Below, piece after piece: positions 6,312 through 55,320 of a stretch of 64,000 nt of DNA. The translations under genes were made by a program, and so were the position numbers. Under the pieces are notes generated by a model. The model saw only the letters and a list, made by a program, of their open reading frames with translations. It made no database searches and was not told the origin of the DNA. Origin of the DNA: Octopus vulgaris (Eukaryota); assembly GCA_951406725.2 (NCBI GenBank), contig OX597818.1, positions 125,922,001 to 125,986,000 of the forward strand. The letters run 5' to 3'. The number at the start of each line of letters is the position of its first letter. The stretch's first letter is position 1.

Positions 6312-6469
6312 TATTAAGAAGAACGTGGCAGTCAGAATTTTGGACAATCTCTTATTAGCGCTTTCGTCCGGACAATCGAACTTTTCAAGATAGTTTGAAG
6401 AGTTGGCTGAACGAACGAAAGCGCTAATAATTATTCAAAATTCTGACTGTCCCCTTCTTCTTCTTAATA
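6312..6469. mobile_element. Fold-back element with two divergent degenerate HHRs
   Basis: Arm pairs TATTAAGAAGAA/TTCTTCTTAATA, CAGTCAGAATTTTG/CAAAATTCTGACTG, TTATTAGCGCTTTCGT/ACGAAAGCGCTAATAA. Cores TTGAAGA (plus) and TTGAAAA (minus), each followed by GAAAGCGCTA. Confidence 0.75.
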
Positions 6470-6570
6470 CATATATATGTATACATACATACATATATAT
6501 ATATATATATATATATATATATATATATATATATATATATATATATATATATATATATATATATATATAT

Positions 6571-6890
6571 AGAGCCTCGGGCCGACCAAAGCCTTGTGAG
6601 TGGATTTGGTAGACGGAAACTGAAAGAAGCCTGTTGTATATATGTATATATATATGTGTGTGTATGCGTGTGTATATGCTTATGTGTCTGTGTTTGTCCC
6701 TCTAGCATTGCTTGACAACCGATGCTGGTGTGTTTACGTCCCCGTCACTTAGCGGTTCGGCAAGAGAGACCGATAGAATAAGTACTGGGCTTACAAAGAA
6801 TAAGTCCCGGGGTCGATTTGCTCGATTAAAGGCGGTGCTCCAGCATGGCCGCAGTCAAATGACTGAAACAAGTAAACGAGTAAACGAGTA
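6571..6890 (+). mobile_element. SINE family A, 5'-truncated
   Basis: GCCTCGGGCCGACCAAAGCCTTGTGAG, internal TA tract, tail GGCGGTGCTCCAGCATGGCCGCAGTC...(GAGTAAAC)n. Confidence 0.9.
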
Positions 6891-6914
6891 ATATATATAT
6901 ATATTTATATATTT

Positions 6915-7120
6915 ATAAAGTTAATCCAAACAAGAAACACAAAAAACACAACAACGCGAGGACGTGGAACAAACATAGTATTATTGGACGCTCAGGAAAG
7001 AAGGAAAGAAGGAGGGTGTATCGTTTTGAGCGGAGCTCTTTGTCGGAAACATAGGAGAAGGAAAGATCCAGAGTAGGGGAGACAGATGAAAAAAATCGCC
7101 AACGGTACACACGAGGTCAT
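6915..7120 (-). mobile_element. ~205 bp (TA)n-embedded element with decayed minimal HHR
   Basis: Reverse complement of 60874-61080; HHR remnant at 7016-7050. Confidence 0.8.
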
Positions 7121-8721
7121 ATATATATATATATATATATATATATATATATACATATATGCATATACATATACATACGTACATATATATATAAACTTAT
7201 ATATATATATATATATATATATATATATATATATATATACATATCTATATGCATATATATATATATATATATATATATATATATATATATATATATACAT
7301 ACATACATACATATACATATAGATAGTTAGTGCGCATGCACAGTAGAGTTCAAGGTCAATCTGCGCTAAGTGGCTTCACTCTGTGTGCTTTAGCTTTTAC
7401 TATGGCATCAGTCCAGAGACTCATTGATCAGACCTCAAATTTATGAATGTATATATTTGTATGTATGTATGTATGTATGTATGTATGTATGTATGTATGT
7501 ATATATTATGTATGTATTTTGTATCTATGTTTGTATGTATGTATGCCTTTTATACTTTCGAGAAAATGAATCATATACGAATATACTGTGACTTCAATAT
7601 TTGAATGCGTACATAATTTTATATCTATATCCGTATGTATATGCATGTGTGTCTGTGAGATCACTTGTGTGTGTATGTGTTCCCAATGAAGCTTATTTAA
7701 ATCGAAGGAAGAAAGTGCTACTCACATAGTAAATATAGTAAATACACACATACATATATGTGTGTATGTGTGCGTGTATATACGAGCGTGTGCCTTTATG
7801 TATCTGTTAGTATGAATAAAAATACAACGTTACACTGCTTAATTACATTCAAATACACTGTATAAAAAGCAAAAATTGATATGACTGAACGTCAAAAATT
7901 ATCATTTCATTTCTGAAGTATAGAAGATCATTTTGTCACATTTCTTTATTATTTCTTATCAAGTCAACGCTCCCATACCTTGAGAATAAGCGACAGCAAG
8001 TCTCCTGTCCGAAGAAATTCGCAAAGGTTTATACTAGAATCGAAGATGACAGATTTTCGCAGCCACACTGTCAAGTTCTCAGTTGCAATATCTCTCAAAT
8101 TATGAAACAGCTGTTTGATGTTTGTCTCACGTATTCTTTAACTGTTGAAATTCCGTTTCACGTGTATATTCCAGGGTTTTGACAGTTCTGCTGTCAAACT
8201 TCGTTGCTTCCTATTTCTTATGTGATAAAATTTCACAAATACATATAATAAAATTTTCTCATTCTTGTCATTATTATTTTGTTTTATTTCTGTGCTATAA
8301 ATGAGTTTTCCATATAATTAGTTGAATCTTACGTTTGCTGCTGGATCGGTTGTTTATATCAAACATGATAGAGACGGAGCGTACACTTCCGAAGAGCAGT
8401 AAAATAGTGGATATCAATTATTTTTTCTTTTGATTCAAGTAAAACAGATATGACCTTTTACGGGGCACCAGAGACTTATGGGTGGAAGTTGTCTTCAAGC
8501 CGGAGTCTTGGTTCTGATAATTACGACAGAATGGATTCTGCTTAAGACATCCAACGTGTCAGGTGTTAGCATTAAAACGAGTGTCAGAATAAATCTAAGC
8601 CTATCACTCGCTAGTTCTTTTAGTTGTTTAGCTCCTGATCAGCTCTGGACGACTAGACCTATGATCAAAGTGATTCCATCCATGACGCTCCCTTATTTTT
8701 GTGTATCTAAGAATACATTGT

Positions 8722-9046
8722 GGAGGTGCAATGGCCCAGTGGTTAGGGCAACGGACTCGCGGTCGGGTGATCGCGGTTTCGATTCCCAGACCGGGCTTTG
8801 TGTGTGTTTATTGAGCGAAAACACCTAAAAGCTCCACGATGCTCCGGTAGGGGGTGGTGGCGTCCCCTGTTGTACTTTTTCGCCAGAACTTTCTCTCACT
8901 CTCTCTTCCTGTTTCTTGAGTAACGCTACGATGGATTGGCGTCCCATCCAGCTGGATGGTGGGACACATACGCCACAGAAACCGGGAAACCGGGCCCATG
9001 AGCCTGGCTAGGCTTGAATAGGGTGACGAAATTGGTCGAAAGTTGG
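8722..9046 (+). mobile_element. SINE family C with 13 bp TSD, nested in an older repeat
   Basis: A/B boxes present; AAGAATACATTGT duplicated at 8709-8721 and 9047-9059; flanks resemble the reverse complement of 46345-46525. Confidence 0.85.
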
Positions 9047-52418: not shown

Positions 52419-52659
52419 ATCGACACTTGTATATATTCGATACTCATTTATATGTATGTGTAGACGGAAACTGAAAGTATCCCGTCGTATGAATATATAT
52501 ATATTATATATATATATATATATATATATATATATATATATATATATATATATATATATATATAGGTGTGTGTGTATATATATATATATATATATATATA
52601 TATATATATATATATATGTGTGTGTGTGTGTGTGTGTGTGTGTGTGTGTGTGTGTTGTT

Positions 52660-53770
52660 CTCTGAATTTTCACCGATGGAATGTGCGCGCACTTGATAAT
52701 TTCAACAATAAGCCAGAAAAGCGTTCTGCATTTGTGGGCTTAAAAATATTCCCTTGATATAGTTGCACTCTCTGTAACTCGTCCGTCTGGTGAGGGTCAA
52801 ATAAATGAACCTACTTATGGATATACTATCTTTTGGAGAGTCTGGTGTTGGGTTTGCTCTCAAGAATTCTGTAGTATCCTCCATTGCAGAATTCCCAAGT
52901 GGTATATCTGAACGAACCATGTCATGCCGTATAAAACTGACAAAAGGTAGGTGTCTTACCGTTGTCAGTATTTATTCACCAACAATGTCTCATTCTGATG
53001 AAACTGCAGGACAGTTTTATGATGACCAAGCACATGATATGAAAGATGTTTCTAGTGTTCGGGCCATGACAGAGGCAGAGAGCTGGACTGACCATTGTCT
53101 AGTGCGTGGAAATATGAATTTTTCCATAATGCCTAAAAGTTGTTAGTCTGGCTCTAAGGTACCCAAAAAGTCAAATGCTGTAAAACTTTAAATTCTCAAC
53201 CAACTTGCAAATATTCTACGATGCTATAGAAAATATCAATCTAGACCCAAACAATCTATGGGAAGATTTCAAAATAAAAGTATTTCAGCTTGCAAGATCG
53301 TCAGTGGGATATAAATCGCGTAAATCCAGTGACTGCTTCTCAGATAAATCAGCAGAAATTCATGATCTACTTTTAGGAAAACAAAACTTAGGTAATACAC
53401 TTCTTTCTCAATCCTTGAACCCCCAACTCAAACGAAACTCACAGAAAGTTGAAAGGGAAATTGCAAACTGCTCTAAGGAAAATTGAATAGGAATCGTGGA
53501 ATGATAGAGCAAAAGGGACACAAGAAGCAGCTGATAGAAATTACGTCAAGTCTTTGTACTCTTATGTTAAAATCTTCTTCAATAGCTCCAGTGGGAACAG
53601 GAAATGGACGTTTGATTCTGACTGACTCTGCTTCTATTCATAATCGCTGGGTAGAACATTTTCTGCACTTTTGAATAGATCATCATCCGCTGACGTAAGG
53701 ATGATAAAAAATATTGAACACCTTCCTGCTATAGAAGAGATATCATCTGAACAAACTCTAAATGACACTC
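52660..53770 (+). pseudogene. RTE-clade LINE endonuclease region, decayed
   Basis: WNVRAL, SGVGFALKNS, GISERTMSCR, VVSIYSPT, FYDD, WTDHCLV, RWVEHF spread across frameshifts. Confidence 0.85.
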
Positions 53771-53874
53771 AATATGTCTACACTAAATATATCTATTTCC
53801 AAGCCTTTAAGCGTTATTCCTATTCACCTATCACTCTATATCTCTCCACTATTATTTTCCTGCTAATTTCTGTC

Positions 53875-53962
53875 TTTCCCTGATGAGAAGATTGCATTGT
53901 TTTACACCATTTTATTCCTTCTGGAATAATACCAATATATTTTTCGAAACATATGTCGGAAA
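53875..53962 (+). ncRNA. Type I hammerhead, intact core
   Basis: TTTCC-CTGATGA-GAAGAT..ATTTTTC-GAAAC-ATAT-GTC-GGAAA; preceded by a pyrimidine-rich tract, followed by AATAAA and (TA)n. Confidence 0.88.
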
Positions 53963-54575
53963 TAAAATGATTTGAATAACACCTGCGTTTAACCCCATAT
54001 ATATATATATATATATATATATATATATATATATATATATATATATATACATATAAATACATACATATATATATACATATATATATATATATATATATAT
54101 ATATATATATATATATATATATATATATATGTATATATGTATGTATGTATATATATATATATATATATATATATATGTATGTATGTATGTATGTATGTGT
54201 GTATATGTATATAATCGTGAAAAAGAAGAACAATGATTTGAAATGAGGTCGGGCGAGAGGAGGGTATATGAAGAATCAACCAAACAAAGATGAAAAAGAT
54301 AAACACCAAAACAATGGATGAGTAATAACAAAAAATAAGTTGAAAAAGGAGGAGGATAACAAGAAAGGCGGAAAGAAAATGGAAGGCCACGGAAAATGAA
54401 AACAGCTCTGTTAAATTTTCATCAATGATTTTTGCTTTAACACCTAGTCTTCTGTTTTTCTATCTCAACTTTCTTAGTTAACTGCATGTAAGTTTTGGTA
54501 CCTTTTAATTTATATATATATATATATATATATATATATATATATATATATATATATATATATATATATATATAT

Positions 54576-55320
54576 AATTGATATAGGATAAAATTTTTTT
54601 CGGGAAAAAAATTTTATCAATGGCCAACATATAAAAAAATGCCTTTAAGCTAAGATTTATACATAATTTACAAGATAAGGGCAGAAGAAAAAATTCTAAT
54701 GCCAAATATGCCGAAACAAAAAATTGTTGGTAACCATTATAATTTAGGCGTCTCGAAGCAAACCGATAGAAATTTCTAAAAAATTCGTTATTACCGTATT
54801 GGTCCAATTTCGGGGTTAATTCATAAGAAATTTTCCCCTCTTCAGCGGCAAATACGCGAGACATAAATGAAATACTTACTCATACCCATGGAAAAAGCAA
54901 GCACTAAGTCCTGAGCAGACTTAAGTACCCCAATTATATCCAAAATAGAAAAATCATCGGCGCACCTCGAGACACGTGCGATTCGAACTAGAAACTTTCA
55001 CAGAGTGATAGAATCCGGAAGTGAATACTAATCTATTTATAATTGATATAGGATAAAATTTTTTTCGGGGAAAAAACGAATTTTTTAGAGATTTCTATCG
55101 GCTTGCTTCGAGACGCATAAATTATAATGGTTATCAACAATTTTTTGTTTCGGCATATTTGGCATTAGAATTTTTCTTCTGCCCTTATCTTGTAAATTAT
55201 GTATAAATTTTACCTTGAAAGGCATTTTTTGATATGCTGGCCATTGACAAAATTTATTTCGGGAAAATTTTTTATCCTATATCAATTATAAATAGATTAG
55301 TGTTTACTTCCGGATTCTAT
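54576..55320. mobile_element. Retrozyme-like element: 465 nt terminally redundant monomer (-) plus inverted partial copy (+)
   Basis: AATTGATATAGGATAAAATTTTTT at 54576 and 55041; 55075-55320 is the reverse complement of 54576-54790 continuing into 55009-55040. Confidence 0.9.
54791..54851 (-). ncRNA. Type I hammerhead, intact core
   Basis: TTGCCG-CTGAAGA-GGGG..CCCC-GAAA-TTGG-A-CCAAT-A-CGGTAA. Confidence 0.9.

Follow-up and report, generated by a model that had tools for sequence, protein, structure and literature searches.

Why do hammerhead ribozyme (HHR) motifs that lie in fold-back elements of unrelated sequence all point away from the centre of their element? The question is raised by a stretch of 64,000 nucleotides from the genome of Octopus vulgaris (assembly GCA_951406725.2, contig OX597818.1, positions 125,922,001 to 125,986,000 of the forward strand), which as a whole is referred to as the window and whose own numbering is used throughout. 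An initial annotation had noted six such elements, termed E1 to E6 here, and had attributed their common head-to-head geometry to a shared mechanism. Such a mechanism is supported and can be linked to Penelope-like elements (PLEs): the six hairpins are very probably inverted insertions of the PLE type. The best explanation overall, to which a probability of roughly 0.7 is assigned, is that they are separate insertions of non-coding PLE units, in which both ends of the cut were extended on element RNA. The geometry is not a new regularity, however, but follows a published rule (PMC8557442; PMC3846280). PLE insertions often carry an inverted, 5'-truncated copy that is joined at the 5' end (PMC8557442); in such a unit, a ribozyme located toward the 3' end comes to lie on the outward strand by construction.

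Geometry and polarity of the fold-back elements

The masked window was scanned for fold-backs, the inverted-repeat search of the unmasked sequence being swamped by TA runs. The scan yielded ten peaks, comprising four others, listed further below, and the six elements, each at the place where it had been noted:

E1, 6312-6388 / 6395-6467: arms 84% identical over 68 columns, centre of 6 nt
E2, 10366-10481 / 10494-10584: arms 84% identical over 86 columns, centre of 12 nt
E3, 16973-17146 / 17170-17339: arms 88% identical over 170 columns, centre of 23 nt
E4, 18743-19180 (-) / 19182-19580 (+): arms 81% identical over 360 columns, unpaired centre of ~52 nt
E5, 51789-51940 / 51942-52092: arms with 1 substitution and 5 indels over 147 columns (99% identical), centre of 1-3 nt
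E6, 54577-~55075 (-) / ~55075-55320 (+): arms 93% identical over 211 columns, unpaired centre of ~273 nt

The elements measure 160-840 bp, contain no open reading frame (ORF) and display arm identities of 81-99%. As had been claimed, their sequences are mutually unrelated; the best of the 15 pairs is equalled or exceeded by 3 of 100 shuffles. A TA-rich microsatellite borders all six on at least one side, although E2 adjoins on its left the 3' end of a long interspersed nuclear element (LINE) of the APE-reverse transcriptase (RT) type and E6 on its right another high-copy repeat. Beyond the paired region, the left arm continues unpaired for ~30 nt in E1 (to ~6285), ~85 nt in E3 (to 16888) and ~70 nt in E5 (to 51720). 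In E1 the centre borders the HHR core on its 5' side, the right arm of E2 lacks 28 nt that include the HHR core, and the right arm of E3 (plus strand) ends within stem II, at a short TA run. The ratio of one substitution to five indels in E5 is unusual and may mean that consensus errors have obscured a perfect palindrome of very recent origin.

The following HHR-like motifs are found in the elements, together with a seventh, E7, that was not among the six noted:

E1, both arms (left -, right +): decayed HHR-like motif, better in the right arm
E2, left arm (-): HHR-like motif with good stems I and III and three core changes
E3, ~16950-16998 (-), left arm: whole HHR motif with one core change
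E4, 18888-18933 (-), long arm: type I HHR motif with intact core
E4, ~19360-19400 (+), short arm: HHR motif with one core change
E5, 51815-51893 (-) and 51990-52066 (+): HHR motif with long stem II and an identical core change in both arms
E6, 54797-54845 (-), long arm: type I HHR motif with intact core; short arm without HHR
E7, 53880-53957 (+): single, unpartnered HHR motif that has a long stem II and an intact core

E7 ends an insert of ~290 nt ahead of a TA run and has no inverted partner within 3 kb. With a strict descriptor, only four motifs, those of E4-left, E5-left, E6-left and E7, exceed the shuffle maximum of 10. Because this descriptor missed E2-left and E3, a relaxed one was used, which was written post hoc, after the elements had been seen, and was accompanied by shuffle controls. 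By the relaxed descriptor, the outward strand scores higher than the inward strand in six of six elements:

E1: outward 11.5, inward -4.8
E2: outward 7.4, inward 5.0
E3: outward 16.9, inward -2.4
E4: outward 27.3, inward -3.6
E5: outward 20.0, inward 3.1
E6: outward 31.3, inward 7.6

The best outward score is reached by none of 40 shuffles for any element, and the best inward scores are equalled by 1 to 28 of 40. The two-sided binomial test of the common polarity gives p = 0.031, or p = 0.063 if E2 is left out. The motifs lie near the 3' end, with the cleavage position ~19-220 nt from the paired outer end, and the type I HHR motif is clear in E3-E6, decayed in E1 and weak in E2. Folded in isolation, the motifs are unremarkable (z from +0.6 to -2.2, ten sequences). 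With these caveats, the outward polarity stands, yet the majority of the 'ribozymes' are decayed motifs. Within the six elements, an unmutated core has been retained only by E4-left and E6-left. A convergent pair considered at ~305-390 was rejected, as it remains below the fold-back threshold and holds no HHR motif on any strand; the site is an imperfect, AT-rich palindrome whose minus strand includes a heptamer resembling the core.

Partial tandems and tails in E4 and E6

Two features can discriminate between priming of both ends and fold-back of a cDNA, namely the placement of tails and the alleles shared by the two arms. The long arm of E4 (18743-19180, minus strand) comprises 1.3 tandem units with a period of 337 nt, and the short arm (19182-19580, plus strand) consists of ~1.2 units with a terminal tail of 36 nt (19545-19580). 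Similarly, the long arm of E6 (54577-55075, minus strand) contains 1.07 tandem units with a period of 465 nt, its outer end adjoining (TA)33 without a tail. The short arm of E6 (55075-55320, plus strand) begins ~7 nt downstream (3') of the position at which the HHR would cleave and terminates in a tail of 34 nt (55287-55320). In both elements, the sequence of the tail corresponds to the beginning of the next unit; the tail is found on the shorter arm, whereas the outer end of the long arm lacks it. In neither element, therefore, does the short arm merely duplicate the long cDNA. One-sided tails and partial tandems, the latter corresponding to a pseudo-long terminal repeat (pseudo-LTR), are seen in these two of the six elements; the unpaired left extensions of E1 and E5 are at most candidate tails, and none is readable in E2 and E3.

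The E6 unit further harbors an internal hairpin of 32 nt near its 3' end (54587-54618), with an upstream copy at 55052-55076. The 5' end of the long arm falls in this upstream copy, which is a possible stop for RT.

The E6 family in public sequencing runs

Contigs of four public runs, which stem from three studies and bear three organism labels, were aligned to positions 54577-55530 at 85% likeness. As 5,638-10,444 contig records aligned per run, the E6 family is highly repeated. Among the 15 joints listed (of 63), 13 are antisense-to-sense junctions with breakpoints unlike those of E6 itself, and the remaining two are deletions inside one arm. The unique centres of 14 family junctions, one more being derived from the 12 of 55 rows listed, range from 12 to 366 nt. 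At the junctions, the two sides have 0-3 letters in common or are separated by a few additional ones, and many junctions leave the HHR unpaired or lack it. Cleavage by the HHR was considered as the event that sets the 5' end of the short arm, which fits E6 with its distance of ~7 nt, but is not supported: of the other 14 junctions in the family, a single one comes within 10 nt, and the rest are spread over 190 nt, the right arm covering only sequence 3' of the HHR. Matches in metagenomes, with 0 loci in one scan and 3 loci over 20-24 nt only in another, were taken as chance.

The aligned contigs also provide information about the descent of the two arms. Of the 40 variant sites listed (of 74), 17 fall into the paired arms of E6; after one in an alignment gap was dropped, the other 16 rows represent 12 paired sites. 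At 6 of these 12 listed sites, the two arms agree in an allele that differs from the family alternative. Two of the six shared alleles are rare, i.e. those at 55136/54728 (family alternative 98-100%) and 55106/54758 (75-99.9%), where shares were taken from summed contig depth and are a rough measure. At the other 6 of the 12, a single arm departs from the family. This pattern of six shared and six one-arm alleles argues for a single source lineage of the arms, with separate decay thereafter. Of the two sources of arm differences envisaged initially, later decay is thus favored over the use of two templates. Gene conversion between the arms would fit the shared alleles equally well.

Two explanations that dispense with retrotransposition can be weighed at this point. 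The first is an assembly artefact caused by chimeric fold-back reads. The arms of E5 differ almost only by indels, which can be hairpin consensus error, and no listed contig spans the centre of E6. However, arm-to-arm substitutions amount to 7-19% in five of the six elements, the flanks differ past the arms, and similar junctions occur in independent runs, so that the probability of an artefact is close to nil.

The second supposes either miniature inverted-repeat transposable elements (MITEs) or inverted duplications induced by breaks at (TA)n cruciforms, with ribozyme motifs present by chance. MITEs and other fold-back DNA transposons possess fixed, equal terminal inverted repeats and an internal region that is constant across copies. 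TA-rich flanks would suit this explanation, as would the four fold-backs of the window that carry no HHR-like motif on any strand, two of them centred on TA runs:

32057-32136: fold-back with a TA run as centre
33894-34084: fold-back with a TA run as centre
38893-38986: fold-back
47630-48056: fold-back

The first two suggest that hairpins may also arise at TA runs in another manner. For E1-E6, the unequal outer ends and the variable centres in the E6 family led to rejection of the MITE class. The partial tandems and tails of E4 and E6 also speak against chance hairpins, as do the many different centres in the E6 family, and random duplications would neither stay within elements nor keep one polarity in six of six. 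Chance hairpins of either kind are highly improbable for the set as a whole, and for E4 and E6 they are largely refuted.

Two proposed mechanisms: priming of both ends and self-priming

The favored course of events begins with a PLE protein that would cut both strands of AT-rich DNA, whereupon both 3' ends would be extended on element RNA. Each cDNA would start near the 3' region of the RNA, at one of two start sites, which would result in a tailed or an untailed end. The cDNAs would stop early and be joined to each other at the centre, and after insertion the arms would decay separately. We infer the PLE protein as the mover of the units, the order of these steps and the later separate decay of the arms. 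In such an insertion, the 3' end of the element lies at both outer ends, so that the ribozyme strand must face outward; insertion alone sets the polarity, and selection on the ribozyme need not be invoked. If both ends were primed on RNA from one source, the polarity would be accounted for, as would the unequal truncations, the alleles common to both arms and a tail on either arm.

A narrower version, tentatively put forward, assumes that a dimeric PLE protein primes both cut ends on a single multimeric or circular, retrozyme-like RNA with two start sites. One RNA with two start sites would explain how the arms share a haplotype while only one of them bears a tail.

The initial annotation had left the choice between priming of both ends and fold-back of a cDNA. 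In the latter process, referred to as self-priming, a short palindrome allows one cDNA (or an antisense template) to fold back, and the second arm is copied from the first. Self-priming would readily produce the tight centres of E1, E2, E3 and E5 (6, 12, 23 and 1-3 nt), although two cDNAs that stop at one point could also yield a tight centre. It agrees with the arms of E5, which differ by one substitution and have the core change in common, and with the right arms of E1, E3 and E5, which hold nothing beyond the left arm at the outer end. The six paired minority alleles shared by the E6 arms, two of them rare in the family, are likewise expected of a copied arm, but could equally stem from a single source RNA or from gene conversion at a later time. 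What separates the two processes is the tail on the short arm of E4 and E6: being absent from the end of the long arm, it could arise by simple fold-back only through a further template switch. Priming of both ends is therefore favored for E4 and E6, which probably arose in this manner; the assignment is less sure for the four tight-centred elements E1, E2, E3 and E5, where fold-back is possible. As an explanation of the elements in general, self-priming is regarded as unlikely.

Several observations weigh against insertion of PLE units with priming of both ends. Four centres are tight (1-23 nt) and the two arms of E5 almost the same, which would be expected from fold-back. Neither RT nor GIY-YIG sequence was found in any of the six elements by tblastn with 7 of 98 PLE-like proteins, the only match in the window lying at 1250-2074; since the elements hold no such sequence, the link to PLEs rests on anatomy. 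A target-site duplication is not readable at any of the six. The right arm of E3 ends in the ribozyme and not at the 3' end, and the remainder did not turn up within the next 3 kb. As to the motifs, E1 is without a clear stem I, E2 scores only marginally better on the outward strand (7.4) than on the inward one (5.0), and a hammerhead family is assigned by Rfam neither at the motifs nor in the 150 of 318 rows listed from the window scan, the matches being hairpin and TA noise. In the public runs, the centre of E6 itself is not spanned by any listed contig and no tail-to-tail joint occurs among the 15 of 63 listed. As the joints considered are these 15 and short-read contigs break at TA runs, the data demonstrate the recurrence of head-to-head junctions and not their share.

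Possible RNA masking and selection on the ribozyme

It had been suggested that read-through transcripts form double-stranded RNA (dsRNA) that hides the ribozymes and might be edited by ADAR or diced. Whole-element folds of four elements, computed for naked RNA only, predict such masking for E3, E4 and E5, where the ribozyme region pairs with the opposite arm, but not for E6. The predicted number of ribozyme-region bases paired within the ribozyme is 0 of 51 in E3, 0 of 53 in E4 and 0 of 92 in E5. The intact-core motif of E6 lies in the unpaired centre, with 18 of 63 bases predicted to be paired inside the motif and 11 outside. No A>G-only skew exists between the arms (128 substitutions, including 19 A>G, 23 T>C, 11 G>A and 15 C>T), a DNA comparison that cannot reveal editing of transcripts. 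No RNA dataset containing the elements was listed, which speaks neither for nor against their transcription.

Masking is also the core of a selective explanation of the polarity. In an inward pair, the ribozyme would be transcribed before the antisense arm and cut the host RNA, and selection would remove such pairs, whereas outward pairs would be masked as dsRNA. In addition to the folds predicted for E3, E4 and E5, the location of the longer arm on the minus strand in six of six elements and the depletion of retrozymes in Xenopus introns (bioRxiv 10.64898/2026.07.22.740005) are in line with this explanation. The fold predicted for E6 is not, nor are the many E6-family junctions in which the HHR is unpaired or absent. 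E7, an unmasked intact-core motif on the plus strand, speaks against strong selection, no host gene was detected among 150 frames, and the insertion mechanism alone yields the polarity. Selection as its cause is thus deemed very unlikely.

Other repeats in the window

The window is AT-rich animal DNA (35% G+C) with ~11,900 bases of simple repeats and many interspersed repeats. The repeats listed here accompany the fold-back elements:

1250-2074 (-): fragment of a PLE RT ORF with a DKG motif, ending at a microsatellite
6129-6250 (+): degraded piece from the 3' part of the E4 family, with a stretch resembling the tail, close to E1 on its left side
10172-10368 (-): LINE ORF of the APE-RT type, C-terminal end containing a motif that resembles a zinc finger, 65% identical to P0099, adjoining the left end of E2
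13852-16731 (-): uninterrupted LINE frame of 960 codons with APE endonuclease and RT domains, beginning at the TA run beside E3
55320-55530: second repeat family, adjoining E6
55895-55972: another partial copy of this second family, ~540 nt further on

The PLE RT fragment is ~45% identical to full-length PLE-like proteins, and its best named relatives are bivalve proteins, many with GIY-YIG domains. The fragment demonstrates that PLEs are present in the genome, in support of insertions of the PLE type, but has no established link with E1-E6. The LINE at 13852-16731 is likely a young, 5'-truncated copy. In all four public runs, the contig depth of the repeat family at 55320-55530 exceeds that of E6. 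No host gene was found among 150 of 172 stop-to-stop frames, LINE-internal and the shortest frames being excluded; Pfam matches were obtained for 3 of the 150, all below the curated cut-offs, and one of these is the LINE end. The minus strand carries not only the longer arm of all six elements but also the LINE and PLE RT frames, and the bias of the longer arms could be due to chance or be a sign of a plus-strand host transcript.

Comparison with known systems

The outward polarity is published PLE anatomy and does not define a new element; as it follows from the way PLEs insert, a specialist would not be surprised by it. New are the short-arm tail in E4 and E6 and the shared rare alleles in E6, which favor priming of both ends and rest on two elements. 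The origin of the inverted junctions of PLEs is named as a task in PMC8557442, and self-priming is proposed in PMC3846280. Six units in 64 kb, together with the highly repeated E6 family, offer many cases in which priming of both ends can be told from fold-back. If priming of both ends on a single RNA proves true, the numerous short fold-backs would be a natural record that settles the formation of the junction, against the self-priming model. The octopus repeat paper PMC13282606 does not mention hammerhead, ribozyme or retrozyme in its main text. In the open-licence literature, no paper was found that joins retrozymes to the head-to-head arrangement, nor was a genome-wide count of polarity.

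The complex units of endonuclease-bearing (EN+) PLEs resemble E1-E6 in the head-to-head, 5'-truncated copy, the partial tandem, the one-sided tail of 30-40 bp, the HHR near the 3' end and the palindromes at the junction, and possibly in the (TA)n or AT-rich sites (PMC8557442; PMC3846280). An inverted, 5'-truncated copy at the 5' end, a one-sided tail of this length, HHRs inside pseudo-LTRs and the (TA)n bias are described as typical of PLEs (PMC8557442). Head-to-head is the most frequently observed PLE arrangement, and small RNAs from such elements have been reported (PMC3846280). In contrast to EN+ PLE units, E1-E6 comprise only 160-840 bp without an ORF, show tails and tandems in two of six and permit no duplication to be read. 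Autonomous EN+ PLEs were rejected as a class for the six, in which tblastn with 7 of 98 PLE-like proteins detected no ORF for RT or GIY-YIG.

The Poseidon PLE of Anolis has been studied in vitro (PMC11167929). Its protein, a predicted dimer, cleaves and extends both strands and prefers AT-rich DNA, and RT starts at two internal sites, the spacing between which corresponds to the tail; the ribozyme is dispensable for insertion in vitro. Two start sites explain tailed and untailed ends, and cutting and extension of both strands as well as an AT-rich target would also suit the octopus units. Differing from these, Poseidon is an autonomous element of another clade, and the parts of the paper considered here contain no model of the inverted junction.

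Dual min-HHRs are located on opposite strands, ~100-700 bp apart (PMC4209133). They are similar to the motifs described here in spacing, strand arrangement, variable and decayed motifs, and a short palindromic stem III, whereas several motifs of E1-E6 keep a stem III of 2-4 bp and long stem II loops. The relevant passage of PMC4209133 is silent on whether min-HHR pairs diverge or converge.

Non-LTR retrozymes are non-coding HHR tandem units that are likely PLE-derived (PMC7229834; bioRxiv 10.64898/2026.07.22.740005). Like E1-E6, they are AT-rich, span a few hundred bases and carry a type I HHR, and the periods of 337 and 465 nt in E4 and E6 as well as the high repetition of the E6 family match this picture. 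A retrozyme is defined by at least two consecutive tandem units, each with a complete HHR (bioRxiv 10.64898/2026.07.22.740005), whereas no locus of the window contains two consecutive HHR-bearing units on one strand. With one HHR per strand, E4 and E6 were not classified as non-LTR retrozyme arrays; their source loci may be such arrays.

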